The position numbers and the translations under genes were made by a program. Positions 1,162-51,002 of a stretch of 64,000 nt of DNA are shown in pieces. This DNA comes from an uncultured archaeon (lineage in GTDB: Archaea; Iainarchaeota; Iainarchaeia; Iainarchaeales; GCA-2688035), in assembly GCA_964354805.1 (NCBI GenBank), contig CAYHBD010000008.1:1-64000 (forward strand), in the 5' to 3' direction. Below the pieces are notes generated by a model. That model was not told the DNA's origin. It did not search any database and worked only from the letters and a program-made list of their open reading frames with translations. How positions within the stretch are numbered: position 1 is the first letter of the stretch; each line of letters opens with the position of its first letter.

Positions 1162-2646
1162 TCATTTGCTCTTCTTTTTATACAGTGCAAACAGCCCTTT
1201 TTCAAAAATTTTTTCAAATCCTTTATCCAATTCCAGTTGGTATCCCGCTCTGTCGCCGTATGCCAGAACATAATCAAAATTTTTGGCGTGGCTTTCGTTA
1301 CTGTAGCGCCATGTTTGCCATGCAGGTGGAGCTATTTTGAAGGATTCATCTTTATAGTCAATTGGCCACATTTTTGTTAAACCAATGTAAGGCGCAACAC
1401 CGCCTTTTTCAATGAGATAATAACAGTAAGAGTGAAGCCATGAGGGGAAAAAACTGGCATCCCAATCAGATAGGGGCAGCAGCCTGCTGTCCATTTCAAC
1501 AAGATTGGTTGCAGAAACATGGTCGGCTATTCCCTGCTGTTGCTGCGAAAAAAACAAAAAAGCGCTGGCAACAGCGCAAACAGCTGCAAGCCCAACCAGT
1601 GGAATAAAAATTGTTTTAACCAACTTTTTTTGGGGCTCGCCAACTATTGCAATTGAAATAAAAAGCAAAAAAAGCGCCAGCCTGCTGGTTATAAAACCGT
1701 AAGAGCCCATCCAGGAAGGCAGCAGCAAAGACAATAAAAGCCCGAAAACAACAGAAGCAAAAAACCCAGCCTTAATGTGCCCCCTGAAATGAATTCTTTT
1801 ACTTTTTTTGACCAAAAACAATTCGCATGCAGCAGCACCCAAAGCAAGAAAAGCAAAAACCATTGATGCCCTGCCTAAATCATTCCCGATTGGCGCTAAT
1901 AAAAACCAAAAATCATCCCACTTATGCCAAAGATTTGACCAAGTAATTGGCAGAAAACTTGAATCATTGCTGGCTGTTGCAAAAAAGAAAAGCGCTGCTG
2001 CAGCAAAAGCCAAGGCAAAATGCGAGATTGAGGCAACAATCGCTTTTGGTTTATTGAAATAAAAAAAAGCCGCAACAGCTGTTATGAAAAAGAGGAAAAA
2101 AAACACCATCAAATGCGACAAAAACACAAGCAGCCCCAATGCAGAAAGAATTGCCATTTCCCGCAGACACTTTTTCCCAAGGCTTTTTTGCGAAGCAAAA
2201 AAGGCTTTCTCAATGTTTCTTGCCCAATAGCCGAGCGCAAAAAATGAAATTGACACAGCAAGCAAAAAATTTATGAAACCAGCAACAAAAGGGACAGTGA
2301 AAAGAAATACAACGGCAAAAAAAGGCAGCCAATTGTTCCGCTTGTTCAATGAACCAAAAAAGTATCGTGTGCCAAAAGCAAACAATGCAATCAGCACGCT
2401 CAGAAAAACCTTTCCAGCAACAAAAATCGGCATAAAAAAATTCAATGCAGCAATCAAAAAGTGCCCCAGAGAATTCGGCACAGCCAAAAGATTCAACTCA
2501 AAAAAACCCTCAAAACCCCTGCCCCCATTCTTAATTACATGGGCAATAAGCAAATGCCGCGGGTAATCGGTAAGAGGCACAAACTCAAAAACCCACACTG
2601 GGGCAATGCACAGCAAAACAAACAAAGCAAACAATTTGGGGCTCAT
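1162..2646 (-). CDS. Multi-pass membrane protein, probable GT-C superfamily glycosyltransferase
   Basis: PLTDYPRH motif after first TM helix, ~11 hydrophobic segments, soluble C-terminal domain; contains in-frame hairpin repeat at 2171-2208. Confidence 0.55.
   Translation of the reverse strand: MSPKLFALFVLLCIAPVWVFEFVPLTDYPRHLLIAHVIKNGGRGFEGFFELNLLAVPNSLGHFLIAALNFFMPIFVAGKVFLSVLIALFAFGTRYFFGSLNKRNNWLPFFAVVFLFTVPFVAGFINFLLAVSISFFALGYWARNIEKAFFASQKSLGKKCLREMAILSALGLLVFLSHLMVFFFLFFITAVAAFFYFNKPKAIVASISHFALAFAAAALFFFATASNDSSFLPITWSNLWHKWDDFWFLLAPIGNDLGRASMVFAFLALGAAACELFLVKKSKRIHFRGHIKAGFFASVVFGLLLSLLLPSWMGSYGFITSRLALFLLFISIAIVGEPQKKLVKTIFIPLVGLAAVCAVASAFLFFSQQQQGIADHVSATNLVEMDSRLLPLSDWDASFFPSWLHSYCYYLIEKGGVAPYIGLTKMWPIDYKDESFKIAPPAWQTWRYSNESHAKNFDYVLAYGDRAGYQLELDKGFEKIFEKGLFALYKKKSK
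2171..2208. repeat. REP-like hairpin unit, in-frame in CDS
   Basis: TTTTTCCC AAGGCTTTTTTGC GAA GCAAAAAAGGCTT; encodes KAFFASQKSLGKK. Confidence 0.85.
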
Positions 2647-2696
2647 TAAAAAAAACTACCATAAAAAAGAATAAAAAAGCAACAATTGCCCCGCAT

Positions 2697-3242
2697 CTAA
2701 TAGGGGCAATCGCTTGGGCAGGTGTAATTGTTCTCGGTGCCAGTGCAATAGCCATCGCCGCAGTAGGCGCCTGCCCCCTGTTTGGTTCCGCTAACTGTCA
2801 CCTTTCTTGCCATATTTGCGTAGTCCGTGTAATTAATATCAATTCTTCCAGTGCCACTGCCAACGTATTTGATTTCAGTGAACCGCAGTTCGCCGCCTGC
2901 AATGACATTAATTGCCGGAGAAATGTCCGCACCAGAAGTAAATGTTGTGCCATTCAATTTGCATCCGTAAAAAACAGCGTTGTCCAAAGTGACTTTGGTT
3001 ACAGAGATCCTGCCGCCGGTGATGTTCTGCAAAATGACTTCAACGAAGCCTTTTGCGGCATCATACGAGCTTCCCTTAACCGGCATTTTGGTTGGCTCAC
3101 TGCTGGTGAAAGAAATTTGCCCACTCGGCGTTCCAATAAGGATCACAAAAACCCCGATTATGGTGGCAATTAATACCAACGCCCAGCCATAGGTCATTAA
3201 ATACTCCAAGCCGGCCTGGGCTTTCTTTTTTGCCTTCTTCAT
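2697..3242 (-). CDS. Type IV pilin (class III signal peptide) with C-terminal Cys-rich motif
   Basis: MKKAKKKA|QAGLEYLMTYGWAL (Q+1, E+5) then hydrophobic helix; ends CGDGYCTGTENNYTCPSDC. Confidence 0.9.
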   Translation of the reverse strand: MKKAKKKAQAGLEYLMTYGWALVLIATIIGVFVILIGTPSGQISFTSSEPTKMPVKGSSYDAAKGFVEVILQNITGGRISVTKVTLDNAVFYGCKLNGTTFTSGADISPAINVIAGGELRFTEIKYVGSGTGRIDINYTDYANMARKVTVSGTKQGAGAYCGDGYCTGTENNYTCPSDCPY

Positions 3243-3362
3243 AGCAAATAATTAATAACGCAAGTTGTATTTAAATTTGTTTTTCTCAGCAATCCGGCAA
3301 AAAAAGTTCAAAAAAAAAATCAAAATGAACAAAAAAAAATTCTGCTGTGCCAAAGCCAAGGG

Positions 3363-4010
3363 CTATCGCGCGCCCTTTTTGCCGGTAATTGTAAGCGTTC
3401 TCGAAAACGCTGTTTCGTCTTTGTAGGTCACTGTAATTGTTCCAACGCCGCCGGGGGTGTATTTAATGTTTGAAAACCTCATTTCATCGCCTGGCCCCAC
3501 ATCAAGAGAGCTCGTTGTAAAGGTGCTACAGACTTTGTCGTTTAATTTTGATTGTGTGCTACATTGACCACCTGCGGGATCACTAAAACTAGGATTTAAA
3601 GAAAAACCAGTAACAGTGATTGTGCCGCCGCTGGCATTCTTTAAGGCAACGCTTACATTGTTTGCTGCATCAATGTTGCCGCCTCCTACAAGTGGGAACT
3701 CTGTTGGCTGGGAGGAATTGAAAACAGGGGTTTCAATCGGGCCGCCAAAAAGAAGCACAACTACACCAACTATGGTGGCAACCAGCACAAGCGCCCAGCT
3801 GTAAGTGAGCAGATATTCCAGGCTGATTTGGGCTCTGCAATCGCTTTGCGATTGCACTTTTTCCCATCCTGCAAAAGCTTCGCTTTTGCGGGACCTCGCA
3901 AAACCTTCGGTTTTGCAAGGAGGCTTTTTTGCAACAGCAAAAAAGGCTTTGCCGTTAGGCTCTTTTTCCCAAGGCTTTATTGCAACAGCAAAAAAGGCTT
4001 TTTTCATCAT
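3363..4010 (-). CDS. Type IV pilin paralog, signal peptide extended by repeat insertions
   Basis: ...CRA|QISLEYLLTYSWAL; mature part homologous to neighbours (FNSSQPT, LKNASGGTITVT, RTLTITG). Confidence 0.85.
   Translation of the reverse strand: MMKKAFFAVAIKPWEKEPNGKAFFAVAKKPPCKTEGFARSRKSEAFAGWEKVQSQSDCRAQISLEYLLTYSWALVLVATIVGVVVLLFGGPIETPVFNSSQPTEFPLVGGGNIDAANNVSVALKNASGGTITVTGFSLNPSFSDPAGGQCSTQSKLNDKVCSTFTTSSLDVGPGDEMRFSNIKYTPGGVGTITVTYKDETAFSRTLTITGKKGAR
3836..4004. repeat. Composite REP-like hairpin cluster inside pilin signal peptide
   Basis: Six consecutive hairpins including two AGGCTTT..GCAACAGC..AAAGGC units. Confidence 0.85.
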
Positions 4011-4082
4011 AGCAAATATAATAGAGAGTGCTTGTATTTAAATTTTTTCAATGCAGGAATCCGCGCCCCTGAACAAAAATAC

Positions 4083-4679
4083 TTACCCTTTTCCTTTTCT
4101 TCCGGTAATTGTAAGTGTTCTACTAAAGTTGTGGACGTCTGTGTAATCCATTGTGATTGTCCCACTGCCAGTACCGCCATAGGTGATGCTTTCAAATTTT
4201 AGGTCGCCACCTGAAATCACCTGAATTGCGGGAGAAATAGTGGCCGCAGAAGTGAATAGGCTCCCATTAAATTTACATGCAGAAGCAGGAGCTGGTCCGC
4301 ATCCAGAGAAAGTTCCTGAAACAGTGATTTTTGTAACAGTGATTTTGCCCCCGGTCACATTTTTTACTATAACGCTGGCTTTGTTTGAGCCATCGATTGT
4401 GCCGCCCATTACAGGGAACTTTGTTGATTGACTGCTGTTAAATACAGGGGCATCAGCCGGTGTTCCAACAATCATCACAAACACTCCAACTATGGTGGCA
4501 ACCAATACAAGCGCCCAGCCGTAAGTGAGCAGATACTCCAAACCAGCCTGAGCTCTCGCCGTAAGGCGTTTTTTCCCAATGGTTTTTTGCAACAGTAAAA
4601 AAGGCTTTGCCGAAGGCACTTTTTCCCAAGGCTTTTTTCCCAAAGGAAAAAAGGCTTTTGGATTCATTTGGAAAACCAA
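4083..4679 (-). CDS. Type IV pilin paralog, signal peptide extended by repeat insertions
   Basis: ...ARA|QAGLEYLLTYGWAL; start TTG 4679 or ATG 4667. Confidence 0.85.
   Translation of the reverse strand: MVFQMNPKAFFPLGKKPWEKVPSAKPFLLLQKTIGKKRLTARAQAGLEYLLTYGWALVLVATIVGVFVMIVGTPADAPVFNSSQSTKFPVMGGTIDGSNKASVIVKNVTGGKITVTKITVSGTFSGCGPAPASACKFNGSLFTSAATISPAIQVISGGDLKFESITYGGTGSGTITMDYTDVHNFSRTLTITGRKGKG
4557..4659. repeat. REP-like hairpin cluster (two units) inside pilin signal peptide
   Basis: TTTTTCCCAATGGTTTTTTGCAACAGTAAAAAAGGC, TGCCGAAGGCA spacer hairpin, TTTTTCCCAAGGCTTTTTTCCCAAAGGAAAAAAGGC. Confidence 0.85.
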
Positions 4680-4788
4680 TTAGATATAGTACGACGCGGT
4701 ATTTAATTCTTTTTTTTACTCAAAAATGGGAATTTGTTCTGGGGCAAAGAATAAAAACCCTGAAAGCGTTTATTGCTTTGGTTTTGTG

Positions 4789-5763: not shown

Positions 5764-5826
5764 AATCATTAAATTGCGCAAAACTAAAAAAAATTGCGGC
5801 AGTGAAGAAGGAGATTTGAAATTAAA

Positions 5827-7033: not shown

Positions 7034-7130
7034 TTTTTCCCAAGGCTTTTTCACCGCGTGAAAAAGGCTTTGCAATTGCGAAGCAATTGCCCTTTTCCCA
7101 AGGCTTTTTCACTGGGTGAAAAAGGCTTTT
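7034..7130. repeat. REP-like hairpin cluster (two units), intergenic
   Basis: Two TTTTCCCAAGGCTTTTTCAC-N3-GTGAAAAAGGCTT units separated by GCAATTGCGAAGCAATTGC hairpin. Confidence 0.9.
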
Positions 7131-8380: not shown

Positions 8381-8938
8381 ATGAATTTTGCAGAAGCATT
8401 GTATGCAAAGCAGGCAAACGCCAAGGGCCAGGGCATGGCGATTGATTTTCTTTTTGCTGTGCTGATTTTTCTTCTCTTGCTTAACACTGTTCTTTCGCTT
8501 TGGTCAGGCAACAGCAAATCCTTTGAAAAAGAAGCTTTGTTAAGCGACTTGGGTTCAAGGGCAAGCCAGGCAATTGATTTGCTTGTAAGGGACAGCGGCA
8601 CTCCAAATGATTGGGAAACAAGAACAATTGATGATGTAAACGTAATCGGTTTGGCTAAAACAGACAGGGTTTTGGATGGCGAAAAGGTTGCGAAATTCAC
8701 TGCTTGGGCGCAAAATTTTTGGTCGGATGACTACAATAAGGTCAGGCAGAAAATGCTGCTGGCAAGCGATTTCTATTTCAGGTTAAGTGATGAAGACGGC
8801 TTGGTGCTTGCCCAAACAGCTTTGCCTCCAACAGAACTGCAAGACAAGTGGTGGGTTATTAATGTTAAAAGAATAGTAAAGTATGGAGGTGACGCTGCAA
8901 TTGCCGAGATATCATTGTATCACCCAAAATACCCGTAA
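8381..8938 (+). CDS. Minor pilin A3
   Basis: KG|QGMAIDFLFAV; GTPNDWE...IGLA...VLD motif; paralog of 15259-16605. Confidence 0.8.
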   Translation: MNFAEALYAKQANAKGQGMAIDFLFAVLIFLLLLNTVLSLWSGNSKSFEKEALLSDLGSRASQAIDLLVRDSGTPNDWETRTIDDVNVIGLAKTDRVLDGEKVAKFTAWAQNFWSDDYNKVRQKMLLASDFYFRLSDEDGLVLAQTALPPTELQDKWWVINVKRIVKYGGDAAIAEISLYHPKYP

Positions 8939-29365: not shown

Positions 29366-29416
29366 AAACTATTTCTTACCACTTCCAATCGCGGAATAAT
29401 GAAAGACCGCTGCGAA

Positions 29417-30646: not shown

Positions 30647-30692
30647 TATTATGAAAATAGAAAAGAAATAAAAGAAAGACGTGGCGCCTCAT

Positions 30693-31349
30693 TTAATAAG
30701 GAACAGAAACTTGATTTTTATCCTTTGGTTTATACACATTATATTTTATTATTGATTTCAAAGTATAGAATTCTTTAAAATGAAACCAGAGCCTATCATC
30801 TGTTCCGTTTTTTTGAAACATTATAAAATTTTTGATTGGAGTTTTGATTGAATGATAGTTAGACTTGTTTTTTCTTATCCAAGAAGCCACTAACTGAGTC
30901 GAACGCATCCACGCATCATCAAACAAAACATACCCCTTTTGATTGAGTAATAAATCAATATAATAAAAATCAATGAAGATGTCATCAAATTTATGCCCTC
31001 CATCTATAAATGCAAAATCGAACTTGACTCTTTTGCAAAGGAGTTTTGGCAATGCATTATGGGAAAAATCTTTTTCAAGTATTAGGCACTTGTCTAAATT
31101 CAGTTTTTTAATATTTTTCAGACCCAAATTGTTGAATTTATCCTCAAAAGGGTCTATAGAATAGTGTATTGAGCGCGTGGCTGAAATAATGTATGCCGCT
31201 GAGCAGCCATATGCGAAACCGACCTCAAGCGTTTTCTTGATTTTCTTTTCTCTCAAAAAAAAGTATATAAATTCAGCTGCTTTTTTAGCGAGCGGTATCT
31301 GCACAGTCTCTTTTGGGACTGCCAAGCGGTCGTAGAGGTCGGGTGCCAT
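30693..31349 (-). CDS. Class I SAM-dependent methyltransferase (Methyltransf_24-like)
   Basis: TLEVGFAYGCS, FDFAFIDGGH, GYVLFDD. Confidence 0.88.
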   Translation of the reverse strand: MAPDLYDRLAVPKETVQIPLAKKAAEFIYFFLREKKIKKTLEVGFAYGCSAAYIISATRSIHYSIDPFEDKFNNLGLKNIKKLNLDKCLILEKDFSHNALPKLLCKRVKFDFAFIDGGHKFDDIFIDFYYIDLLLNQKGYVLFDDAWMRSTQLVASWIRKNKSNYHSIKTPIKNFIMFQKNGTDDRLWFHFKEFYTLKSIIKYNVYKPKDKNQVSVPY

Positions 31350-31480
31350 TTAATTACCTTAATGTACAAATATTATTTAAAAACTCTGCAAAATCAACCA
31401 TTTGATCGTCTTTGGAGAAAAAACGTGGTTAAAAATTTATAAAAAACTTTTTAGTTCAAGTTATAGTAAGGAGATTACAA

Positions 31481-32266
31481 ATGATGAAAAGGGCACAGGA
31501 TTTAATTGGAGTTGTCCAGCTTTACCGAAATTGGCCCGTCAGGATAATGGAATTCTTCAAATTGTACCCAAATAAAAATATAAAATACAATTTGCGGAAT
31601 GGCCTTGTTTTCAATATAAGGGCTAACACTAGCGACACTCTTACTATAATCGAATGTTTTAGAAAAAAGGTTTATGATAGATACTTAAAAATAGGTTTAA
31701 GTGACAGTATAGTAGATATCGGTGGGAACATAGGTGCATTTTCAATCTATGCTGCAAGTATAGCAGAAAAGGGAACGGTTTATGCTTTCGAGCCTGTGGA
31801 AGAAAACTTCAATTTGCTTGAAAAGAATATTAAGGAGAATAATTTGCATAACATTAAAGTATTCAAAAATGGTGTTGCTGGAAAAAATGGGGAAGGAAAA
31901 CTATTCTTATCTAATAACAAAGGGGGCCACAGTATATATCCCCCAAAAAACGCGACAGGCAAAAGTGTCATTGTAAAATTTGTTTCTTTACAACAGATAT
32001 TTAAAGAAAACAAAATTAAGTGCTGCGATTTCCTCAAAATCGATTGCGAAGGGGCTGAATATGACATCTTATTTAATTGCCAACAACATATTCTAAAAAA
32101 GGTCCGAAAAATTGCAATGGAATTCCATGATATTGACCGAAATTATAACCGCTTTCGATTAAAGCAACATCTAAAGAAAAGTGGGTTTAGTATAATTGCA
32201 TTGGAGGAGCGCCCCCAATGCGAAACAGGGATGCTTTATGCTATTAGGGAAAAAAAGAAGGATTGA
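31481..32266 (+). CDS. FkbM-family methyltransferase
   Basis: VDIGGNIG, VYAFEP, LKIDCEGAE. Confidence 0.92.
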   Translation: MMKRAQDLIGVVQLYRNWPVRIMEFFKLYPNKNIKYNLRNGLVFNIRANTSDTLTIIECFRKKVYDRYLKIGLSDSIVDIGGNIGAFSIYAASIAEKGTVYAFEPVEENFNLLEKNIKENNLHNIKVFKNGVAGKNGEGKLFLSNNKGGHSIYPPKNATGKSVIVKFVSLQQIFKENKIKCCDFLKIDCEGAEYDILFNCQQHILKKVRKIAMEFHDIDRNYNRFRLKQHLKKSGFSIIALEERPQCETGMLYAIREKKKD

Positions 32267-33113
32267 TTTTAGTATAGTTACGCCAGCAAAAAATGCCGAA
32301 AAAACAATTGGCAAATGCATGGAGAATTTGCTAAACCAAAACTACCCAAAGCAAAAATACGAAATAATAGTTGTTGACAACAACTCAACAGACAAAACCA
32401 CTGATGCGATAAAACAGTATCCTGTAAAATATTTACTGGAAAAAAAACCAGGCGCAGCAGCCACAAGAAACTTGGGAATCAAAAATGCTAATGGAAAAAT
32501 AATTGCTTTTATTGACAGCGACAGATATGCTGATAAAAACTGGTTGGCAAAAGCAAAGGAGGAGTTTGATAAAAAAAGAATAAACCTGCTCGCTGGTGAA
32601 GTAAAACCTGAAAAAGGAGCCTCAAGGGTAGAAAAAATTCTTGTTGATTGGGGCATGGACCAACAATGCAGCGTTGAGTCTGGTTATGCAGCAACATGCA
32701 ACCTATTTGCAGAAAGAAGAACATTTAAAAAAGTCGGCCTTTTTGATGAAAAGGATTTATGGCTGGATGCTGAGGATGTGGAATTTTGCCTTAGGGCTAA
32801 AGACCATGGTTTTAAGCTTGAATTCTCGCCTGAAGTTATTGTATACTACAAGCCAAGAACTCTGGGGGGTGCAATTAAAAGAGAATTTAGACGTGGAAGA
32901 GCCGCAGCCCATGTTAGGCGATTGGCAAAAAATAGGGCGTATCTAGCAAATATAACAAAGAAAAGAAAACCGTTTAAGCATCTGAAACGGGTTCTAAGAA
33001 AAAAGAACAGAGACTTCCTTGACTTGCCAATTGTAATTTTTGTTTATTTTGCATTCCTATTTTCAAGCTTAGCAGGCGAGACCTACGAAAAATTGCATTC
33101 GCGATTGAAATAA
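32238..33113 (+). CDS. Glycosyltransferase family 2
   Basis: SIVTPAKN, IIVVDNNSTD, RNLG, FIDSD, AEDVEF. Confidence 0.92.
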   Translation: MLLGKKRRIDFSIVTPAKNAEKTIGKCMENLLNQNYPKQKYEIIVVDNNSTDKTTDAIKQYPVKYLLEKKPGAAATRNLGIKNANGKIIAFIDSDRYADKNWLAKAKEEFDKKRINLLAGEVKPEKGASRVEKILVDWGMDQQCSVESGYAATCNLFAERRTFKKVGLFDEKDLWLDAEDVEFCLRAKDHGFKLEFSPEVIVYYKPRTLGGAIKREFRRGRAAAHVRRLAKNRAYLANITKKRKPFKHLKRVLRKKNRDFLDLPIVIFVYFAFLFSSLAGETYEKLHSRLK

Positions 33114-33120
33114 AGATTAG

Positions 33121-34335
33121 TTATTGGGGTTCATTAAGTAAACTGCGATAAATTTTTCTGTATTTTGAAATTATGACTTTTGCACTACAGGTTCGCTTAG
33201 CAAAGACCCGCCCTTTTTTGCCCATTTTTTTCTGCAAGGAAATATCATTCAAAATAGTGGAAATTCTATCAGCTAAGGCAAGCGGGTCGTTTGGTTTAAC
33301 AAGAAAGCCATTCACACCATCTTCTACTAACTCGGGGATAGCACCAACTTGCGTTCCTATAACTGGCTTTTGGAGCGCCATTGCTTCAGCTAGAGTCCTA
33401 CCAAAAGATTCCATAGTCAAAGAGGGAAGGACAACCACATCAGAATTCTTGTAAACCTCTTTCATTTCGAAGTGATTTATAGGCCCAAGAAAAAGCACAT
33501 TGTTAGAAACACCGAAATTTACAGCCATTTTTTTATAGAAACTGTTTGGTGAGCCAGCAAGCAAAAGCTTGCATTTTCTTTCTGCCAATACTAAGGAAAA
33601 TGCCTTTAGCAGTTGGGCTATGCCTTTCCATTCAACTAATCTGCCTGCAAAAAGAATATTTCCCGTCCCATACGGGATCTTCTTATCCAAAAGCCATTGA
33701 TCATCAACAGGATTGTAAATTGTTTGACTGTGCTTGCCTGTGTGTTTTTCCAACAAGTCCGCCAAAAAATTGCTTACACAAACAGTTTTTCTAAGCCTGT
33801 TGAATTGGGCTAATCCAAAATTTGCATTTTTTAAGTAAAAATAAGAATGGATAGGCCTGAGAAAATGGTTTGCTCTATTAACCATAAGACACCTAGACAG
33901 GTTTTTGGGCGTGCAACCAGTGCAAATGCTATAATCTTTGAGCAAAAATTTGTAGCCTTGTCCGCAAAAAGGCCAAAAATTACTTATAGTTGCAACACTT
34001 TTTTTCAGCAGGCTTCCCTCCAAAGTAAGCGGAAGAGTTGTTCTGCAATCCTGACTGTGGAATATATCAAAATCTTGAGCTTTTTTCTTCAAAGAACTTG
34101 CTACGTGCAATGCGAAATATTTTTCATTCAGACCATAAAAGTGGGGTTCAACACGCAATTCGTTTAAATTTTTTATCTCAAACCCTTCAACATAATTTTT
34201 AGGTTTTTTCGTCGTTGTAAAGACTGTTACTTCGTCACCATGCTTTGCTAGCTCTTTAGCAAAGTAGTATGTGTTGATTTCAATGCCGCCAATACATTCA
34301 GGGATAAAAAATTCACTTAGCAAGGCGACGTGCAT
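33121..34335 (-). CDS. Glycosyltransferase family 4
   Basis: GGIE, FAGRLVEWKG, ESFGRTLAEAMA. Confidence 0.92.
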   Translation of the reverse strand: MHVALLSEFFIPECIGGIEINTYYFAKELAKHGDEVTVFTTTKKPKNYVEGFEIKNLNELRVEPHFYGLNEKYFALHVASSLKKKAQDFDIFHSQDCRTTLPLTLEGSLLKKSVATISNFWPFCGQGYKFLLKDYSICTGCTPKNLSRCLMVNRANHFLRPIHSYFYLKNANFGLAQFNRLRKTVCVSNFLADLLEKHTGKHSQTIYNPVDDQWLLDKKIPYGTGNILFAGRLVEWKGIAQLLKAFSLVLAERKCKLLLAGSPNSFYKKMAVNFGVSNNVLFLGPINHFEMKEVYKNSDVVVLPSLTMESFGRTLAEAMALQKPVIGTQVGAIPELVEDGVNGFLVKPNDPLALADRISTILNDISLQKKMGKKGRVFAKRTCSAKVIISKYRKIYRSLLNEPQ

Positions 34336-35242
34336 AAGGAAATACCTTCATACTAATTGATTCCCACATATAACCTGCTTGCTGCAGAAGAAAGCTTGCT
34401 GAAAGCAGGACTAAGACAAGTGGAAAGTGTTTCTTGCGAATATTTTCTCTAAGGATATTTTTTGAAGACCAAAGCCTTAGCGAAATGAACTTGCTTACGG
34501 ATCCAACCTTTTTCCTAAAATGGTAGTTTGCCCTGCCCCTCTTAAACTGCCATCTAATAAAAGTAAGCAAGCTTGCTCTGGGCGTATGTAAAACAGTTGC
34601 ATCAGGGCAGTATTTTATTTTAACGCCAGCCCTTGTCAATCTGACAGACAATTCAGCATCCTCCGCACCATGCTTAAGAGATTCATCAAATAACCCAACT
34701 TCATCAAATACTCTTCTTTTTATTACAACATTGCCAGTGGCAAGGTGGTCTGTAAAACCGTTGCTTGAAACGTGCCACATTTTGTCAAAGCCAACAGAAC
34801 CACCGCCAGGAAAACCCAAAGCGGAAATGGAGGTTCCGATAAAATTTGAATCAGGAACCATTGTGCCACCTGTGGCAACATGAACATCATCGCCGATTGA
34901 ATCCAACAGGTTTTCAAGCCAATCCTCTTTAGGCACGCAGTCTGAGTCAATAAAAGTAATGAACTTGCCTCTCGCGTTTTTTACACCCATATTTCTGTTA
35001 AAAGCAACGCCCTTGCCAGATGGAATCTTCACAATCCTGCAACCATCGAACAAAACAAGGTCTTCTGCTGGTACAGGCACTTCGCTTACAACAATTGTTT
35101 CATAGTTTTTGCTGGTTTTCTGAACCCTAAGTTTTTCCAGCAACTCTATAAGGCTGCCATCAATCTGGTTGGTTACCACAACTACTGAAACGGCAGGGCA
35201 GTAGTTTTTTACACCGATAACACTGTTGCTATTTGCTTTCAT
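34313..35242 (-). CDS. Glycosyltransferase family 2
   Basis: RNMG, FIDSDC, FDESL...AEDAEL. Confidence 0.9.
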   Translation of the reverse strand: MKANSNSVIGVKNYCPAVSVVVVTNQIDGSLIELLEKLRVQKTSKNYETIVVSEVPVPAEDLVLFDGCRIVKIPSGKGVAFNRNMGVKNARGKFITFIDSDCVPKEDWLENLLDSIGDDVHVATGGTMVPDSNFIGTSISALGFPGGGSVGFDKMWHVSSNGFTDHLATGNVVIKRRVFDEVGLFDESLKHGAEDAELSVRLTRAGVKIKYCPDATVLHTPRASLLTFIRWQFKRGRANYHFRKKVGSVSKFISLRLWSSKNILRENIRKKHFPLVLVLLSASFLLQQAGYMWESISMKVFPYARRLAK

Positions 35243-35330
35243 GAAACCCCCAAACCAATGCTTTTGCAACATACCCCATTTATAAAATAAACCAAAGTAA
35301 GCTTCATAAATAAAATGGTTCTATGAGTTA

Positions 35331-36821
35331 ATGACTATTATGGGGGCATTATTTAAAACTGGCTTTTATTTGAAGCTGTTTTTGATTGTAGCGATAGCAA
35401 TTTTCTTCATTATGCAATTTAACAGATTGAGCAGTCCTTATGTTATTTCAGATGAAGCGTATTATGCCTTAAAAAGCTGGCTCATTTTCAAGGACCCTGC
35501 ATCAATACTTTCAGAGGAAACATACGTAATATACCGCCCTGTAACCTATCCAATCTACCCCCCGTTACTGCCTGCACTTTTCGCCCCATTAAATTTGCTC
35601 TTTGAACCGATGGCAGCATTTCGGTTGGGAGTCTTGCTGTTTTCACTAATTGCAATCTTTTTAACTTACTTAATCGGCAAAAAATTGTTCAACCCAGAAG
35701 TAGGCACAATAAGCGCGGTTTTGCTTGCATTTTCAGCGACATTCTTTTACTTTAGCACAAGAGCATTTTTGGACATACCATTGCTTGCAATGGTTTTAAT
35801 TGCTTTTCTTTTGGTGCTTGATTTAAACAGAAAAAAGATAGTGTTGCTTGCATTGGTTTTTGCAGGAATATTCTTTTTGAAGACTGAGGGATTAATTACC
35901 ATGCCTGCAATTGCTTTGGTAGCAGCTGTTAAATACAAGGAAAAAATAAATGTAAAAAAAATATTTCTCATCATCTGTGCATTATTGCTTCTTTTTATTC
36001 TTTTTATGCAAGTGGTTCCTGGTGGTCCTGGCGCCCCCAACCTTACATGGCTGCGGTATATCCAAAGCAACCCACTGATTTATTTCTGGCTCTTCGGGCA
36101 GCAGCTGATTGTTTATACTCTTGGATACGCGCTAATCCCGTTCCTGATACTTGGGTTCTATTGCCTTCACAAAGAGGGAAAGGAAAAATTGGTCATACCG
36201 CTTGTTTTGATTTACGCCACAATCGCCCCCTTCTTCTTGTTTGACATAATTAACAGCAGGTATTTTATTCCCGCAATCCCGGCGTTCTGTTTTGTTGCAG
36301 CATATGGAATCACTAAAATAAACCTGCCAAAATTAAAAAGCAACTATCTTTTGCATTTTGCCATAACTGCGATTATTTGTACTTTACTAATACAATTTTC
36401 AACATACTTGCGCTATGACAAATTTGATTGCAATGATTACACTGAATTACGCCAATGGCTTGAGCAGAATATATCAAGTGAGGACAACATTGTTTTGTTT
36501 TCAAATTCTTATGACATACGGGGAATTGGCTTGCAGTCCTATCTTGTTTTAGATAAGTTTAATAAAGTGCCAATAAGGAATCCAGGAAAGCAAGAATTTG
36601 AATCACTGCTGCAAAATTGCAGGGGGAGCATATTTGCCATTTATGATGAATTTACCACACAAATTGGCTTACCGCCACATGCTGTTTGGGTATTCCTTGA
36701 AGAAGGCGGTGCAGAGGCTTACCTAAATAAAAAAGGCTTTCAAAAAGTGATTGAAATGAGACAAAAAGCAGCGCCGTGGGCTTGGAAGGGGCACTTTTAT
36801 ATCTTCAGAAAGAAGTGTTAG
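35331..36821 (+). CDS. GT-C fold membrane glycosyltransferase (PMT_2/ArnT/GT39-like)
   Basis: SDEAYY after TM1, YPPL, multiple TMs, RYFIP motif. Confidence 0.85.
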   Translation: MTIMGALFKTGFYLKLFLIVAIAIFFIMQFNRLSSPYVISDEAYYALKSWLIFKDPASILSEETYVIYRPVTYPIYPPLLPALFAPLNLLFEPMAAFRLGVLLFSLIAIFLTYLIGKKLFNPEVGTISAVLLAFSATFFYFSTRAFLDIPLLAMVLIAFLLVLDLNRKKIVLLALVFAGIFFLKTEGLITMPAIALVAAVKYKEKINVKKIFLIICALLLLFILFMQVVPGGPGAPNLTWLRYIQSNPLIYFWLFGQQLIVYTLGYALIPFLILGFYCLHKEGKEKLVIPLVLIYATIAPFFLFDIINSRYFIPAIPAFCFVAAYGITKINLPKLKSNYLLHFAITAIICTLLIQFSTYLRYDKFDCNDYTELRQWLEQNISSEDNIVLFSNSYDIRGIGLQSYLVLDKFNKVPIRNPGKQEFESLLQNCRGSIFAIYDEFTTQIGLPPHAVWVFLEEGGAEAYLNKKGFQKVIEMRQKAAPWAWKGHFYIFRKKC

Positions 36822-36898
36822 AAACTATGCTAGAGCAGCTGCTCATAGAATAAAATAACAAAAAAGAGAAAAGAAAAAAAGGGTGCAAAAACTTAATT

Positions 36899-37366
36899 TT
36901 AAACCACTGTTCCTTGGCACGTAACTACAACTGATTTACCCGTGTAGCCAAAGGCATCAGTGTATGTTATTGTTGCAGTTCCATTGTAAGCGTACCCTTT
37001 TGCGCAAGTTGATGCAGTGCCTCCAGATCCACAACCGACTGTTAGCTGTATCGCGTTCCCGCTTGTTACAGTTCCAGATGTTGCCGGGTTAATTGTTGCC
37101 TTTGTCATACTGCCAGTCCTAGCTGTGGCTGTAATTATAATTGTTCCACCAGTAATATTCTGTAAATTAACTGTATTTGGTGATGCACCTGCCCCAACAT
37201 TGTATGATTTCATCAACATCTTTGTTGGATCAGAGCTATTGCACGCCACTCCAGCTGTCGGGCTGCTTACAATGAACACAAGTACTCCGACCACGATTGC
37301 TATGACTATCAGTGCCCATCCGTATGTCATTAGGTATTCCAATGCTGCTTGTCCTCTATTATTCAT
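36899..37366 (-). CDS. Type IV pilin, probable major pilin
   Basis: MNNRG|QAALEYLMTYGWAL; GGAGG Shine-Dalgarno upstream; shortest, uninterrupted signal peptide. Confidence 0.9.
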   Translation of the reverse strand: MNNRGQAALEYLMTYGWALIVIAIVVGVLVFIVSSPTAGVACNSSDPTKMLMKSYNVGAGASPNTVNLQNITGGTIIITATARTGSMTKATINPATSGTVTSGNAIQLTVGCGSGGTASTCAKGYAYNGTATITYTDAFGYTGKSVVVTCQGTVV

Positions 37367-38882: not shown

Positions 38883-39497
38883 CTAATTAGGCATTATGCC
38901 CTTGATTAATTGCCTTGCTTGCTTTCTTGTTGCGTGCAGGCTGCCGCTGTTATCAATTACGTAATGAGCTCTTTTAATCTTTTTCCCAAGGGTTTTTTTG
39001 CGGAAGCAAAAAAAGGCTTTTTTAATCTTTTTCCTATGGGGGATTTGGGCAGCATAGCGCAACAAAAATTCCTTTTTGCTTACGCCTTTTTTTAGCGCCC
39101 TTTGCATGCACTGGCGCTTGCCTGCTTTAACAACAATTACTGCGTCAAAGCGGTTCTGCCATCCTGCTTCAAACAAGAGGGGCACGTCAACAATAACAAA
39201 ATTTTCCTTTTTTTTCTTGAGTTTTTTAATGCCCTTTTCAATCTCTTTCCATACGAGCGGGTGCAGAATCCGTTCCAGCTTTTTTCTTTTTCTGGGGGAA
39301 GGGAAAACAATTGCGGAAATTTTGCTTTTATTGAATGTGCCGAATCCCTCCAACAATTTTTTCCGGACAGCTTTGCGCTTATGCAATTCGCTGACTATTG
39401 CATCGCACCCAATTCCCGCAATGCCCTGCTGCCTGAAGAGGCGCAGAACAGTGCTTTTGCCGCTGCAGATTGAGCCTGTTAAAGCAATCAAGCGCAT
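38883..39497 (-). CDS. coaE: Dephospho-CoA kinase (bacterial type) with 16-aa repeat-derived insertion
   Basis: IALTGSICSGKST, LERILHP, VDVPLLFEAG, VIDNSG. Confidence 0.93.
   Translation of the reverse strand: MRLIALTGSICSGKSTVLRLFRQQGIAGIGCDAIVSELHKRKAVRKKLLEGFGTFNKSKISAIVFPSPRKRKKLERILHPLVWKEIEKGIKKLKKKKENFVIVDVPLLFEAGWQNRFDAVIVVKAGKRQCMQRALKKGVSKKEFLLRYAAQIPHRKKIKKAFFCFRKKTLGKKIKRAHYVIDNSGSLHATRKQARQLIKGIMPN
38980..39020. repeat. REP-like hairpin unit, in-frame in coaE
   Basis: TTTTTCCCAAGGGTTTTTTTGCGGAAGCAAAAAAAGGCTTT flanked by 19-bp near-direct repeats. Confidence 0.85.
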
Positions 39498-41113: not shown

Positions 41114-42328
41114 ATGCGAAAAAATGATTGGGTTCATTTTCTGGGTTCCTTTCCGCCGAGGGAGTGCGGGATTGCAACATTTACAAAAGACCTTGTCACG
41201 GCAATTGACCAATGCAAAAACCCTGGTGTTGAATGCAGGATTGCTGCAATGAACGACAACCTTTACTCAACATACAATTACCCAAAGCAGGTAAACATCC
41301 AGATCCACGAAGACGACCAGGAATCCTATTTAAGGGCGGCTGACAAGCTGAACAAAAGCAGGAAAACGCAGCTTGTATGCATCCAGCACGAATTCGGCCT
41401 GTTCGGCGGCAGCTTCGGCGAATACCTGATTCCGTTCCTTGAGGAATTGCAGAAACCAATTGTTACAACTTTCCACAGCGTTCTGCCGGGCGTGCCGAAA
41501 ATTGAAAGGCACAGGAAATATGTCGTGAAAAAAATCTGCCAGAACAGCGAAAAGGTTGTTGTAATAAGCGGTTTCGGAAAAGACATCCTGATGCAAAAAT
41601 ACGGCATACCGGAAGAAAAAATTGCGGTCATTCCGCACGGCGTTCCCTCTATTCCATTCAGGCAGGAGGAGAAAGCGAAAAAGGAGCTTGGCTTTGAGGG
41701 AAGAAAAATTTTAAGCACTTTTGGCTTGATGAGCAAAAGAAAAGGAATCCACTATGTTATCAAGGCATTGCCAAAAATAATAGAACAAAACCCGGCGGCA
41801 TTGTATCTGGTTATTGGGGAAACACACCCGCAGGTTAGAAAGCACGAGGGGGAAAAATACAGGAACTACTTAAAAAAAATTGTTGGAAAGCTGAACCTGA
41901 AAAACCACGTAATGTTTGAAAACAGATACTTAACGCTGCAGGAAATATGCAAATACATCCAAGCAACAGACGTATACATAACTCCGTATTATGACCCTTA
42001 CCAGATAAGCAGCGGAACACTGGCTTACGCTGTTGCTTCCGGGACTGCGTGCGTTTCCACTCCGTATTTGTATGCGAAGGATGTTTTGAGGCATGGGAGG
42101 GGCATTCTTGTCCCATTCCAGAGCAGCAGGGCAATTGTCAATTCTGTAAACAGGGTTTTGAGCGACAGGCAATTCAGGCTGTCGATTGAAAGGAAGGCGT
42201 TCAATTACACGCAGGGCTGGCAGTGGCCCAACATTGCTGAAAGCTATCTGCAATTGTTTGAGGAAATATTGGGAGGCAATAAATTAAGGGCAGCACAAGC
42301 GCAAAAAAACTCGGTTGCAATTGCATAG
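41114..42328 (+). CDS. Glycosyltransferase family 4 (paralog of upstream gene)
   Basis: PPRECGIATFT, IQHEFGLFGG, VIPHG, TPY...QISSGTLAYA. Confidence 0.92.
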   Translation: MRKNDWVHFLGSFPPRECGIATFTKDLVTAIDQCKNPGVECRIAAMNDNLYSTYNYPKQVNIQIHEDDQESYLRAADKLNKSRKTQLVCIQHEFGLFGGSFGEYLIPFLEELQKPIVTTFHSVLPGVPKIERHRKYVVKKICQNSEKVVVISGFGKDILMQKYGIPEEKIAVIPHGVPSIPFRQEEKAKKELGFEGRKILSTFGLMSKRKGIHYVIKALPKIIEQNPAALYLVIGETHPQVRKHEGEKYRNYLKKIVGKLNLKNHVMFENRYLTLQEICKYIQATDVYITPYYDPYQISSGTLAYAVASGTACVSTPYLYAKDVLRHGRGILVPFQSSRAIVNSVNRVLSDRQFRLSIERKAFNYTQGWQWPNIAESYLQLFEEILGGNKLRAAQAQKNSVAIA

Positions 42329-42399
42329 CAATTGCCCATTTTCCCACGCAATGCCAAGCTAAAGAATATTTGTTTTTTGTTTCATTGCTTGGCATTGCG

Positions 42400-42435
42400 C
42401 CAAGGCTTTTTATGCTGAAAGCATAAAAAGGCTTT
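42400..42435. repeat. REP-like hairpin unit, intergenic
   Basis: CCAAGGCTTTTTATGC TGAAA GCATAAAAAGGCTTT. Confidence 0.8.
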
Positions 42436-45715: not shown

Positions 45716-46384
45716 ATGGCAGAATTGTTTGACTTCAACGAAATGGTGACAAGGCACATTGAAAGGGAAAACAGGCCGAAGAGCATTGGAAAATATTATC
45801 CGAGCGAAATAGGCGGCTGCATGCGAAAGGTGTGGTACAGCTACAAGTATCCGCAGCAGGTGCAGCCTGAGCTGCTGAAAATTTTTGAAGTGGGCAACAT
45901 GCTGCACGGCTTTGTTGTTGAAGTGCTGCAAAGCGAAAAAAACCCGGAAGTGCAGCTGTTGCAAAGCGAGTTCCCGCTGAAAATAACCCAGCCTGAATTC
46001 ACCATAAGCGGCAGGGTTGATGACCTGCTGCTGGTAAAGGCAAGCGGAAAAACAATTGTGGTGGAAGTGAAGTCAACAAAAAGCATTGAATTCGTAAAGG
46101 AAGCAAACGAAAGCCACGTAATGCAGCTGCAGCTATACATGCACGCAACAGGAACACACAACGGCATAATACTGTACATTGACAAGGGAAACCTGCAAAG
46201 CAAACAATTTGAAATAGATTACAGCCGGGAAGAGATTGAAAAAATACTGCAGCGCTTCGGGCAGCTGCACCACCTGCTCAAATCAAGCCTGCTGCCGCTG
46301 GCTGAAGCAAAAAAAAGCGAAGACAAGCAATGGATGTGCAGATACTGCGAATACACTGAAAAATGCGAAAGGAACGAGGAATAA
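45716..46384 (+). CDS. Solo Cas4-like PD-(D/E)xK nuclease with four Fe-S Cys
   Basis: GCMRK, G..H, SGRVD, VEVKS, QLQLY, CRYCEYTEKC; no CRISPR array or other cas genes in window. Confidence 0.88.
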   Translation: MAELFDFNEMVTRHIERENRPKSIGKYYPSEIGGCMRKVWYSYKYPQQVQPELLKIFEVGNMLHGFVVEVLQSEKNPEVQLLQSEFPLKITQPEFTISGRVDDLLLVKASGKTIVVEVKSTKSIEFVKEANESHVMQLQLYMHATGTHNGIILYIDKGNLQSKQFEIDYSREEIEKILQRFGQLHHLLKSSLLPLAEAKKSEDKQWMCRYCEYTEKCERNEE

Positions 46385-47918: not shown

Positions 47919-47922
47919 AATT

Positions 47923-48078: not shown

Positions 48079-48150
48079 AAGCAGTGCAACACCCCTAAGC
48101 CCTGTGAAAAACCAATATTCTTATATATCTTTTTGTTATATATTTGATAG

Positions 48151-48426
48151 GTGATGTTTTTGAGTGAAACTTTGGTTAGGCTGGAGGGCGCGCCGGAAAT
48201 TGTTTTGGAAAAACTGACCAGGCTTGGCTTGTTTAAAACAAAGACAGAGGCAATTAGGGCCGCTATTATGGATTTGGGAAAGGACTACAAGGTGTTCAAC
48301 AGCATGCGGGATTTGGAGGACGAGCTTGTTGTTCGCAAAGTTGCCAGGATTCATAAAGAGATTAAGAGCGGCAAGTGCAAGGTCTTCACCGAAGAAGAGG
48401 TTAAGAAAAAATACGGCTTTAAGTGA
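48151..48426 (+). CDS. Ribbon-helix-helix antitoxin
   Basis: LEKLTRLGLFKTKTEAIRAAI; overlaps downstream toxin (GTGA). Confidence 0.75.
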   Translation: MMFLSETLVRLEGAPEIVLEKLTRLGLFKTKTEAIRAAIMDLGKDYKVFNSMRDLEDELVVRKVARIHKEIKSGKCKVFTEEEVKKKYGFK

Positions 48427-48695
48427 TTTCCTTGTTTCGCTTGGATTATGGCAAAGGCTGGGATAAATTCTTCACCAAAATGGACAAGTCAGAGCAGGCA
48501 AGAATCTGGAAGAAAATCCAGCAACTTAAAACCATTGCAAAAGCAAGGCATTTAGGGAGAGGCTTGCCGTACTTTGTTGTGGAATCAGGCCAGCACAGAA
48601 TCTGCTTCATCGAAGAAGGGCAAACCCGCACAATTGTTTTTGCTGGAAACCACAAGCAATACCAGAAATGGTACACGGCTTTGGAAAACTTGTGA
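48423..48695 (+). CDS. RelE/ParE-like toxin
   Basis: 90 aa basic protein, RIWKKIQQL...HRICF...IVFAGNH. Confidence 0.7.
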   Translation: MISLFRLDYGKGWDKFFTKMDKSEQARIWKKIQQLKTIAKARHLGRGLPYFVVESGQHRICFIEEGQTRTIVFAGNHKQYQKWYTALENL

Positions 48696-48885
48696 TGCCC
48701 TGCAACTTCCTTTAATTCTTTATATGACCCATAATTATTGCCGATGCTGAACTGACAATGACGCAGAGCGCAAGCCGTGAAGAAACATGGGCGGACTGCG
48801 GCTATAAAGGACTTAAAATTAATAAAATATTAATATTTAGTCATTTATAGATGGATTTTTAAAGCTTTCAGGCTTTAATTTAAGT

Positions 48886-50220
48886 ATGGTTTCAAGATTA
48901 GATGTTTTTTTGATTGTTGGTCTTTATCCCGGGCTTTCTTGTGCTGATATTGTTAAAAAGATAGGCAAGGCCCAAACCTCTTACAATTCAGCATACAATC
49001 TTCTTCAGGAACTAAAAACCGAAGGGTTAGTTATTGAGGAGAAAGGGGGCTTTAGCGCTTCAAAAACAAAAAAGGTGCACATGCTTCTTAGCTTGGTTTA
49101 CTTTTGCTTCAAAAACGGGATTGATTACAACAAAGTTATTTCAGAAAAAACCGCTGAGTTCGTTAAAATGGGCTTGGAAAAAGGCCAAATCGATGGATTG
49201 CCGTTTGACGCAAAAACAGTCAGGAAAATTATTGTCCAGCTTTCGAAAAGCGGGTTTGCTATTGTTGAGTCAAGAAAGCCTTTTTCGTGCAAAATTGTGC
49301 CCTCGCAATTCACTCAATTGCTTGCAGAATACTTTTTTGGAGAAACTAGGGTTAAATGCCCTTTGCTATTGGATTGCCTGAATGAAGAGTTTGTTAACAG
49401 CAGCCTTGAAAAGCAGTTTTCCTCATACAAAAGCCTTGAAAAAGAAAAATTCGCCTTTGATGAAATAGGGTTCATTTACATAAGCCTTTCCCTTGAAGGC
49501 AACACCCTTACATTGTCAGAAACTGAAAAGATAATCAAACAAAACATTGCCCCTGCGTCCAAATCCTTCAAAGATGTGCAACAGGTGCTGGATTATAAAA
49601 AAGCGCTTGACGGGTTTATTTTATCCAACAATGCAATCACACTCGAGTCAATACTTGAATTTCACAGGGTGGCAATGAATTCCTTAGTTGCGGGGGCAGG
49701 CAGCTTTAGAACGCAAAATGTCAGGATAAAAGGCAACCCCAACTTTAAAACAGCTGACTGGAAAGAGGTGCCTGAGCTATTAAGGGATTTTTTCAAAAAC
49801 GCGAACATCCAAGAAACTTTTGGAAAAAGTTTCATCAAAAAGCCTTTTGCTGTTGCAAAAGCCTTGGGAAAAATAGCTTTGCAAAAAAAAGTGGCAATAA
49901 ATAAACGTTATATGCCACAAGAAAAGAAAAAATTTTCTGCTGCTGAAATAGTTGAACGAGCCGCCTTTTTGCATAACGAATTCCAGCGCATCCACCCATT
50001 CATTGACGGAAACAGCAGGACATCAAGGGCAATATTCCTAAAAGCACTAACCCAAAACAATTTTCCTTTGATAAAAATACCTGTGGGCTTTTCCGACCAA
50101 TACATGAAACTTACAAAACTAAGCGAAAAAAGAGACGACCAAAAATTTGCCCTCCTGATGAAACAGATAGCCTTGGAAAACCTAAAACACCTAATAAAAA
50201 AACTCGAATACGAATTCTGA
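48886..50220 (+). CDS. Fic-domain protein with N-terminal HTH-like region
   Basis: SLSLEGNTLT, GSFR..NV.I, HPFIDGNSRTSR. Confidence 0.9.
   Translation: MVSRLDVFLIVGLYPGLSCADIVKKIGKAQTSYNSAYNLLQELKTEGLVIEEKGGFSASKTKKVHMLLSLVYFCFKNGIDYNKVISEKTAEFVKMGLEKGQIDGLPFDAKTVRKIIVQLSKSGFAIVESRKPFSCKIVPSQFTQLLAEYFFGETRVKCPLLLDCLNEEFVNSSLEKQFSSYKSLEKEKFAFDEIGFIYISLSLEGNTLTLSETEKIIKQNIAPASKSFKDVQQVLDYKKALDGFILSNNAITLESILEFHRVAMNSLVAGAGSFRTQNVRIKGNPNFKTADWKEVPELLRDFFKNANIQETFGKSFIKKPFAVAKALGKIALQKKVAINKRYMPQEKKKFSAAEIVERAAFLHNEFQRIHPFIDGNSRTSRAIFLKALTQNNFPLIKIPVGFSDQYMKLTKLSEKRDDQKFALLMKQIALENLKHLIKKLEYEF
49813..49873. repeat. REP-like unit (reverse) in-frame in Fic gene
   Basis: GAAACTTTTGGAAAAAGTTTC hairpin + AAAGCCTTTTGCTGTTGCAAAAGCCTTGGGAAAAA. 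Confidence 0.82.
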
Positions 50221-50402
50221 AGACGGTCATAATAGAGGACTAATTGACCGATATGATAATATTTACGAGAAATAACCACAGCAAACAAAAACCGAACTGT
50301 AAGAAAAAACGAGAAAGCTGAAGGTGGAAAACAAGCGGTAATGCGAAAAGTATTTATATACATGGCATATATATTAGGTATATTAAAAGTGCAGGTGGTA
50401 TC

Positions 50403-50642
50403 ATGGTGCAAGCTATGGTGGAAATTCCAAAAGAAGCCAACCAGATCTTGAATATTGTGAAAGCAAAGCATAATTTGAAGACAAAGAGTGATGCGATTTC
50501 TCTTGTCGTTATAGAGTATGGTTCAAGGCTACTTGAACCTAAACTAAGACCGGAATACTTGGAAAAGCTATCCAAACTAAACAAAGAAAAGGGAATCCAT
50601 TTCAAGAACCTCGGTGGACTCAGAAAACTGATTGAGGCATAA
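50403..50642 (+). CDS. Antitoxin (DUF2683-like)
   Basis: MVQAMV...NQILNIVKAKHNLKTKSDAI...LRPEY. Confidence 0.7.
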   Translation: MVQAMVEIPKEANQILNIVKAKHNLKTKSDAISLVVIEYGSRLLEPKLRPEYLEKLSKLNKEKGIHFKNLGGLRKLIEA

Positions 50643-50644
50643 AG

Positions 50645-50911
50645 ATGCGCTCTTACGAAATACTTCCCTCGCTGATAAAGTCACTACGCAAATTGTCCAA
50701 AAGAAACAAAGCACTTTACGAACAAGTTATGAAAAAGATTGGCGAAGTGACCTGCACACCCGACGTGGAACACTACAAAAATTTGAGGTACGACATGAAA
50801 GATTCAAAACGCGTTCATATCGGGCACTTCGTACTCGTTTTCGAATACCGAAAAGCAGAAGACAAAATTATTTTCAAGGACTTCGACCACCACGACAACA
50901 TTTACGGATAA
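50645..50911 (+). CDS. RelE/YafQ-family mRNA interferase toxin
   Basis: HYKNLRYDMK..KRVHIGHFVLVF...FDHHDNIY. Confidence 0.85.
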   Translation: MRSYEILPSLIKSLRKLSKRNKALYEQVMKKIGEVTCTPDVEHYKNLRYDMKDSKRVHIGHFVLVFEYRKAEDKIIFKDFDHHDNIYG

Positions 50912-51002
50912 AAAAAGCCTTTTTGCTTCCACAAAAAAGCCTTGGGAAAAAAAAAGCAATTGCTTCACAACAGCCTCTTTTGCTGTTGCAAAAGCCCTTT
51001 TT
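50912..51002. repeat. REP-like cluster (reverse) between convergent genes
   Basis: AAAAAGCCTTTTTGCTTCCACAAAAAAGCCTTGGGAAAA and CTTTTGCTGTTGCAAAAG; could also terminate transcription. Confidence 0.8.

Follow-up and report, generated by a model that had tools for sequence, protein, structure and literature searches.

A short mobile repeat with a co-varying mirror tail in an archaeon of the Iainarchaeota

The first 64,000 nt (positions 1-64000) of contig CAYHBD010000008.1 (C8), referred to here as the window, belong to a 1.38-Mb genome of the Iainarchaeota (G000) that is 88.5% complete. The window carries a short hairpin repeat at many places and in both orientations, which raises the question of what this repeat is, whether it moves, and by what means. 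An earlier note, made from the sequence of the window, took it for a non-autonomous mobile element of the kind of the bacterial repetitive extragenic palindromes (REP). The repeat is mobile, its three tracts covary, and of its two ends the AAGCC head is precise and the other varies. The explanation that we favour, at slightly better than even confidence, is a mobile but non-autonomous DNA element, 36-60 nt long, of which a single strand would fold to a hairpin capped by a triple helix, with a nicking enzyme that would act in trans.

A looser genome-wide scan identified about 106 units in 92 clusters, compared to two units in a Markov-4 control and four in the reversed genome. Perfect hairpins with a single G.G mismatch (C.C on the opposite strand) number 88 genome-wide and five in a Markov-3 control. 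A hairpin or its modules were found at all 14 positions listed in the earlier note, which had missed a variant at 12704-12746, the in-frame copies, and the mirror tail described below. The clusters of the window are listed in Table 1. Rfam at gathering score has no match anywhere in the window, the repeat has no match in IMG/VR or in phage or plasmid collections, and no description of the family was found in the literature searched.

On the strand with the G.G mismatch, the unit consists of an optional small G/C hairpin, a pyrimidine tract (Y1), a 6-nt linker, a second pyrimidine tract (Y2), a loop, a purine tract (R), and GCTT. The linker is CCAAGG in 160 of the 200 units. The first tract reversed equals the second, which makes the tail (the TTTTCCC flank) the mirror image of the arm; TCCC is present in 72 of the 106 units. 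Where the arm has an internal C (position 4, 5, 6 or 7), the mirrored tail has a C at the matching place in 57 of 69 units, and where the arm has none, the tail likewise has none in 122 of 131 units. The lengths of the T-run beyond the internal C correlate between arm and mirror tail (rho 0.69, n = 61), with exact matches within subclasses in 16/18 and 24/37 units compared to 10.5 and 13 when shuffled. The own genome alone gives an agreement of 15/19 and a rho of 0.70. The run lengths of units without an internal C correlate weakly (rho 0.15, p 0.11). The tail as a direct repeat of the arm was rejected (rho -0.15).

Pairing within the hairpin was assessed on units found by searches that did not require pairing. 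T-run and A-run have equal lengths in 72 of the 78 units, against a mean of 18 after shuffling, and Watson-Crick pairing is seen at the first inner position in 75 of them (39 C-G and 35 G-C). At the three outer positions it is seen in 92, 93, and 87 of 93 units, with up to four pair types. The covariation is strong and the stems are paired yet variable, as the earlier note had proposed, and the two examples it gave (14764-14795 and 24866-24892) are exact. The mismatch that it described as fixed is common and above chance (G.G in 74 of 93 units), and it is not fixed: the position is Watson-Crick in 19 of 93 units, and the subfamilies with GCG or ATC tails are paired there. The GAA loops that it described are found in the spacer hairpins, of which GCGAAGC is the commonest (27/93), and in the main hairpin of only 10 of 200 units. 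The flank that it listed as a motif turned out to be a co-varying third strand and thus more than a short guide. Tandem arrays are always direct, and the observed periods of 50, 51, and 58 nt agree with the 48-58 bp given there.

Judged from its sequence, this order of tracts is that of a class IV intrastrand triplex on the G.G strand and of a class II triplex on the other strand, as these classes are defined in PMC4666352. The linker fits a turn between two strands because two larger modules, a double hairpin at 3867-3920 and a 14-bp inverted repeat inside 42315-42434, sit within it. ViennaRNA folds the unit as a hairpin only, with the G.G strand more stable. We lean to the G.G strand as the strand that matters, given its more stable fold and its loops, most of which have A as their last base. 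RNA does not form purine-motif triplexes (PMC4666352), yet the copies in introns are transcribed from that strand, which argues for action at the DNA level. The antisense copies at tRNA 5' boundaries and in T-loops and the nested copies argue for the same.

The comparison of empty and filled sites had been set beforehand as a test, and empty sites exist in relatives. Syntenic DNA of about 90% identity (records L145, L152, L154, and L258) has no copies at 2171, 4556, 14024, 42315, and 45585. These relatives hold three clusters of their own that are absent from the window, hence filled and empty alleles occur in both directions. The site in the gene of dephospho-CoA kinase (CoaE) is empty in the nearest homologs and filled in two more distant homologs. 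In a tree of CoaE that was built after removing the insert, the filled alleles as one clade were rejected (p-AU 0.008) and three changes are needed, which may be gains or losses. The filled and empty alleles and the recurrent change in CoaE show that the repeat is a mobile element. The prior claim of a dispersed element that is non-autonomous and under structural constraint, in a DPANN archaeon, is supported.

The junctions of the two ends differ. The AAGCC head end is sharp, and the other end is variable and falls after the tail or after the spacer hairpin. Most insertion sites have no target duplication and some have one of 10-28 nt. Duplications of at least 10 nt were identified at eight of 92 clusters (0.5 expected), five of them of 14-28 nt, and at 10 of 183 foreign units (0.5 expected). 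Some duplications rebuild the 5' or 3' end of a tRNA. The empty site of CoaE looks like a tail followed by a head. The final base of the junction seems to be target-derived in two private insertions, and its complement is found in the linker. The target bias outside tRNA genes consists of A at -1/-2 and a weak T at -5/-6. At C7:13138, C10:34615, C16:64971, C33:22933, and C9:82688 of the own genome, the TAA stop of the upstream gene is completed by the first A bases of the head.

Among the 19 tRNA introns at position 37/38 of the own genome, 15 start with the head at +1 to +3, all in sense orientation (0.002 expected by chance), and at least three of the four central helix pairs of the bulge-helix-bulge (BHB) motif are kept in 18. 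Copies also lie directly behind the 3' ends of about 12 tRNAs, the 23S rRNA, and the RNase P RNA. This pattern of stable-RNA 3' ends and introns recurs in many other genomes, where head-started introns with matching splice helices were also read by hand at positions 15/16, 20/21, 58/59, and 59/60. Orthologous tRNAs of other genomes differ in intron presence. These findings suggest that the repeat creates new tRNA introns; the arrival of archaeal tRNA introns has been stated as an open question (10.64898/2026.10.13.758758). Four introns are without a unit, therefore landing in older introns also occurs or units have been lost.

Other features of the tRNA genes were observed as well. In the own genome, tRNA-Arg(TCT) (C7:5355-5449), tRNA-Gln(CTG) (C35:6497-6589), and tRNA-Leu(TAA) (C9:80936-81084) have introns of 18-23 nt that lack the unit. 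These three have a common small hairpin core, TTTCCAA, and are either a second intron family or worn-down units. Insertions in the D- or T-loop with 10-21-nt duplications that restore the tRNA gene were found at C16:22997-23073 of the own genome and in L013, L048, L052, L059, L077, L100, and L179; they resemble miniature att sites. Another short hairpin family with a GAGCCCAAGCGA-type core lies behind tRNA 3' ends at C16:23050 of the own genome and in L015, L077, L081, and L100.

Copies within genes keep the reading frame. All measured coding insertions are a multiple of three: +48 nt in CoaE, +33 nt in a membrane protein, +102, +114, and +48 nt in pilins, +45 nt in ELP3, +54 nt in isoleucyl-tRNA synthetase (IleRS), +93 nt in a DHH protein, and +120 nt in a Fic protein. 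Conserved enzymes are predicted to gain 11-40 residues from the copies. This frame keeping is tolerance and not an insertion rule because mainly open frames were examined. The reading of the coding copies as mRNA introns was rejected for now, as the frame is always kept and CoaE offers only a 4-pair helix. The ELP3 gene (L259:269-1939, which is C16:62968-64638 of the own genome) has two copies, the second of which would add 15 residues compared to PDB 6iaz. The coding copies have their main hot spot in the leaders of pilin genes, on C16, C30, and C47 as well.

No mobiliser was found in the own genome. The search for HUH Y1 genes in it returned IS200 copies only, and among 30 Y1 loci, which lie in incomplete metagenome-assembled genomes (MAGs), none has the repeat on both sides and those that were aligned are IS200-like. 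The presence of a Y1 gene does not track that of the repeat across 23 genomes of the family (Fisher p 0.37). Two Y1-adjacent repeats were rejected as mobiliser pairs: the copy in L128 is a tRNA-Arg intron, and that in L136 is one-sided and beside a broken gene. Neither a reverse transcriptase nor TnpB or DUF559 was found in the own genome (88.5% complete), and a Y2 search of it gave no match, with a control search that was equally blank. It has two tyrosine recombinases. Its one small GIY-YIG gene has no flanking repeats, and 0 of 30 such loci are flanked in relatives. The genes that do have the repeat on both sides are housekeeping genes. The resident IS200 (tnpA only) is multi-copy with identical ends and a TTAG target, and its ends and hairpins are unlike the repeat. 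Its copies are located at C13:1208-1804, C35:600-1140, C45:22753, and the ends of C6 and C10, and it may be active because copies collapse at contig ends. The tnpA of the first copy lies at C13:1331-1786.

In the favoured explanation, the head would attach to a nicked DNA single strand, frequently within a stem-loop or at its foot, for instance the arm of a tRNA gene or an older copy. The other end would be completed by template-switching synthesis, which would leave no, direct or inverted copies of the target. The nicking enzyme would act in trans and may be of HUH type or a host structure-specific nuclease. The apparent mismatch would mark the meeting point of the 6-nt linker and the stem, and hairpins inserted in the linker would be tolerated. 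Selection would retain copies that are spliced out (BHB tRNA introns), cut off (pilin leaders) or in frame, and also those whose target duplication was long enough to make the gene whole again. Several points weigh against this explanation. The triplex folding is deduced from sequence only, the units are related by descent and the p-values are therefore too strong, some of the empty alleles may be precise losses, and no mobiliser came out of the 88.5% complete MAG. A small hairpin directly before the head was found in five of 93 units in a strict test (background 2.3%) and the target bias outside tRNA genes is weak. A general preference for stem-loops, or for the foot of small hairpins, is therefore not supported.

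The rival closest to the earlier note is a true analogue of REP and of the bacterial interspersed mosaic elements (BIME), moved by two-ended peel-and-paste by a REP-associated tyrosine transposase (RAYT) or the TnpA of IS200, with the linker as guide and the bases at the stem foot as cleavage site. The imperfect hairpin, the conserved mismatch, and the direct tandem arrays agree with it, a multi-copy IS200 is resident, and the linker and junction bases are complementary, with a target-like last junction base in the two private insertions as guide-target pairing predicts. Against these stand the lack of a GTAG, GGAG or CGTC tag, of any Y1 gene flanked by the repeat, and of co-occurrence, the different hairpins and TTAG target of the IS200 copies, and variable duplications and a variable end that are unlike IS200/IS605. 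The link to RAYT did not survive these searches, and we consider this rival unlikely. Spread at the RNA level, in which processed RNA ends (the tRNA 5' exon left by EndA, tRNAs cut by RNase Z, and the 3' ends of 23S rRNA and RNase P RNA) would accept or prime the element and the product would be written back to DNA, could account for the sense heads at +1 to +3 of 15 of the 19 introns and for the heads within a few bases of stable-RNA 3' ends, and EndA is present (C11:9474-9734). It is quite unlikely given that no reverse transcriptase was found in the 88.5% complete genome, that antisense copies occur at tRNA 5' ends and T-loops, and that both orientations occur in coding and intergenic DNA.

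The repeat may also need no dedicated enzyme if the triplex stalls the host polymerase and microhomology-mediated template switching alone spreads copies. BoxC-type triplexes do block polymerases in vitro and are without a known mobiliser (PMC4666352), and several targets resemble head, tail or arm (CoaE and the Lys-Gly-Gln codons of a pilin). However, the head junction is precise despite little homology and the 6-nt linker is fixed across phyla, which suggests recognition by a protein and makes this rival improbable. Least probable by far are host-maintained terminators or RNA-stability hairpins that are fixed at gene ends. A perfect-stem subfamily places its T tract right behind stable-RNA genes, and 32 of 52 copies between co-directional genes have the T-tract orientation; local co-option of copies in these roles is likely. 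Nevertheless, copies lie in coding sequence and tRNA introns and not just after stop codons, the like orientation occurs inside tRNA introns, ELP3, IleRS, and CoaE where termination would be harmful, and the sites are polymorphic among close relatives, with empty alleles that largely refute this rival.

Returning to the favoured explanation, a wider claim built on it is that the repeat represents a new minimal mobile DNA with an intrastrand-triplex signal and a previously undescribed one-ended mechanism that could in addition write a splicing motif, and a source of tRNA introns and protein loops in DPANN archaea. We regard this wider claim as possible but doubtful. One family is seen moving between close relatives and starting most tRNA introns of a genome, and it offers a testable route for the origin of tRNA introns and new protein loops. 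The three-way covariation makes the triplex function testable with short oligonucleotides. The origin of the bacterial triplex repeats has been stated as open (PMC4666352). The repeat also disrupts gene and tRNA calling in these genomes.

Table 1. Repeat clusters of the window, their context, and the state of each site in relatives and read runs.
Position	Structure	Context	Relatives and runs
2171..2207	Single unit (+ strand): third strand 2171-2176, linker 2177-2182, hairpin 2179-2207	In frame in 494-aa membrane-protein gene 1162-2646 (-); translation stays open	Empty in L258; net +33 nt in window
3835..4003	Two units and spacer hairpins; one unit with double-hairpin module 3867-3920 in linker	In frame, leader of pilin-like gene 3363-4010 (-)	Single unit in L154, 114 nt shorter; none in paralog 2697-3242
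4556..4657	Two-unit 102-nt insertion, no target duplication	Leader of pilin-like gene 4083-4679 (-)	Empty in L154; 4551-4657 skipped by contigs from runs X3 and X4 (two studies), with the junction precisely at 4657
7034..7128	Two tandem units, GCGAAGC-type spacer, period 58	Intergenic	Common to L154
12704..12746	Variant unit (ACC-tail subfamily)	Directly behind gene 8883-12698	Different variant in L154
14024..14109	Two units	Leader of pilin-like open reading frame (ORF) 13949-14650 (+)	Absent in L154; in-frame +48 nt vs L186
14665..14795	Cluster; Lys-Gly-Gln codons of the gene itself form the last arm	Leader of pilin-like ORF 14616-15182 (+)	L154 filled, with different loops; 14661-14785 skipped in contigs of runs X1 and X2 (two studies), arm retained
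20521..20607	Young unit (20534-about 20580) nested in loop of older unit		Older unit only, intact, in L152
24847..24892	Spacer hairpin and CAG/CTG unit	In frame in 958-aa gene 22717-25593 (+)	Common to L152, where the gene has one more, private copy of 51 nt
38972..39034	Unit between 15-nt direct repeats (38972-38986, 39020-39034)	CoaE gene 38883-39497 (-); 16 residues predicted to be added	
42315..42434	Unit with 14-bp inverted-repeat module inside linker, and spacer hairpin		Absent in L145, rearranged in L147
42538..42590	Spacer hairpin and GTG-tail unit	Upstream of KaiC-like gene	Filled with another loop in L145 and L147
45585..45655	Degenerate unit with double-hairpin linker module	Intergenic	Absent in L145
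49813..49885	Hairpin and unit	In frame inside Fic domain of gene 48886-50220 (+)	About 40 extra predicted residues vs FICD; +120 nt in frame vs L114
50912..51002	Unit and degenerate second hairpin	Between convergent genes	

The window has other features beside the repeat. A cluster at 2697-4679 and 7255-29365 consists of pilin-like genes whose leaders are of class III, genes of VWA proteins, and E/F genes of the type II secretion system. The stretch at 29375-37204 (about 7.8 kb) is absent from the syntenic L152 and part of it scores poorly as coding; it is likely an island. Two copies of the 3' part of a PD-(D/E)XK/Cas4-like gene lie 15.2 kb apart, at 46220-46384 and 61428-61593, with about 88% identity. 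This pair brackets the Fic gene and a 3377-aa ORF, and L256 diverges after 48798.

Foreign loci were collected with patterns that fix part of the motif. The repeat-bearing records are mostly Iainarchaeum MAGs, with some from Aenigm-, Woese-, Micr-, and Altiarchaeota. The strict pattern is present in 16 of 22 genomes of the same family (0 to 90 copies each) and in 10 of 38 genomes from other families of the order, and the reversed pattern has zero matches. The named homologs of the CoaE of the window belong to Candidatus Diapherotrites. The records L048, L052, L077, and L087 carry the repeat under the labels Chloroflexota or Methanosarcinales and were not counted as non-DPANN hosts; the Chloroflexota-labelled ones (L048, L052, and L077) are probably mis-binned because archaeal-type tRNA genes are present in the same records.

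The repeat was compared with known systems. BoxC, also PIT or TM_ECO, of E. coli and other proteobacteria (PMC4666352) has the same order of pyrimidine tract, loop, purine tract, short linker, and mirrored purine tract, and a pyrimidine-motif triplex on the other strand; it is also dispersed, differs in copy number among kin, and has no mobiliser nearby. However, the repeat is A/T-rich and not G/C-rich, its linker has 6 nt and not 3 nt, and it has no sequence likeness to the G/C-rich TM_ECO consensus. It adds an outer stem with the mismatch, tandem arrays, insertions in tRNA introns and reading frames, and direct evidence from filled and empty sites. REP, BIME, and REPIN with RAYT share the short imperfect hairpin, the conserved mismatch, the fixed 5' motif, and the spacer-separated arrays, and some REPs are also in frame within genes (PMC3733652). 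The repeat differs from them in having no GTAG/GGAG/CGTC tag at the stem foot, direct and not inverted arrays, a tail that is a co-varying third strand, and no flanked RAYT found. The ends of IS200/IS605 likewise follow a single-strand hairpin scheme, with one end placed 3' of a target rich in A/T and with possible guide-target pairing, whereas the repeat has no fixed tetranucleotide target, a variable far end, and occasional duplications. Unlike MITEs (miniature transposable elements with inverted repeats), it has asymmetric ends and no fixed length of target duplication (0 to 28 nt).

The Rickettsia palindromic elements (RPE; PMC10969869) also lie in frame in unrelated conserved proteins whose homologs are without the insert. 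The repeat is far shorter than their 150 bp, uses both strands as coding, and has the triplex design and the tRNA-intron hot spot. MJRE of Methanocaldococcus is another palindromic repeat that lies in frame in unrelated conserved proteins. The transposed BHB tRNA introns of Thermoproteales, as summarised from Fujishima 2010 in 10.64898/2026.10.13.758758, place related sequence with splicing motifs in many isotypes and at several positions. Compared to the introns as that summary describes them, most copies of the repeat lie outside introns, and the repeat gives the start and body of the intron while the exon-pairing 3' end is site-specific. Tests for the defining features of REP/RAYT, IS200 derivatives, and MITEs placed the repeat outside these groups, and its sequence is not that of BoxC. 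In build it resembles BoxC/TM_ECO, within genes it acts as RPE does, and in arrays as REP does.

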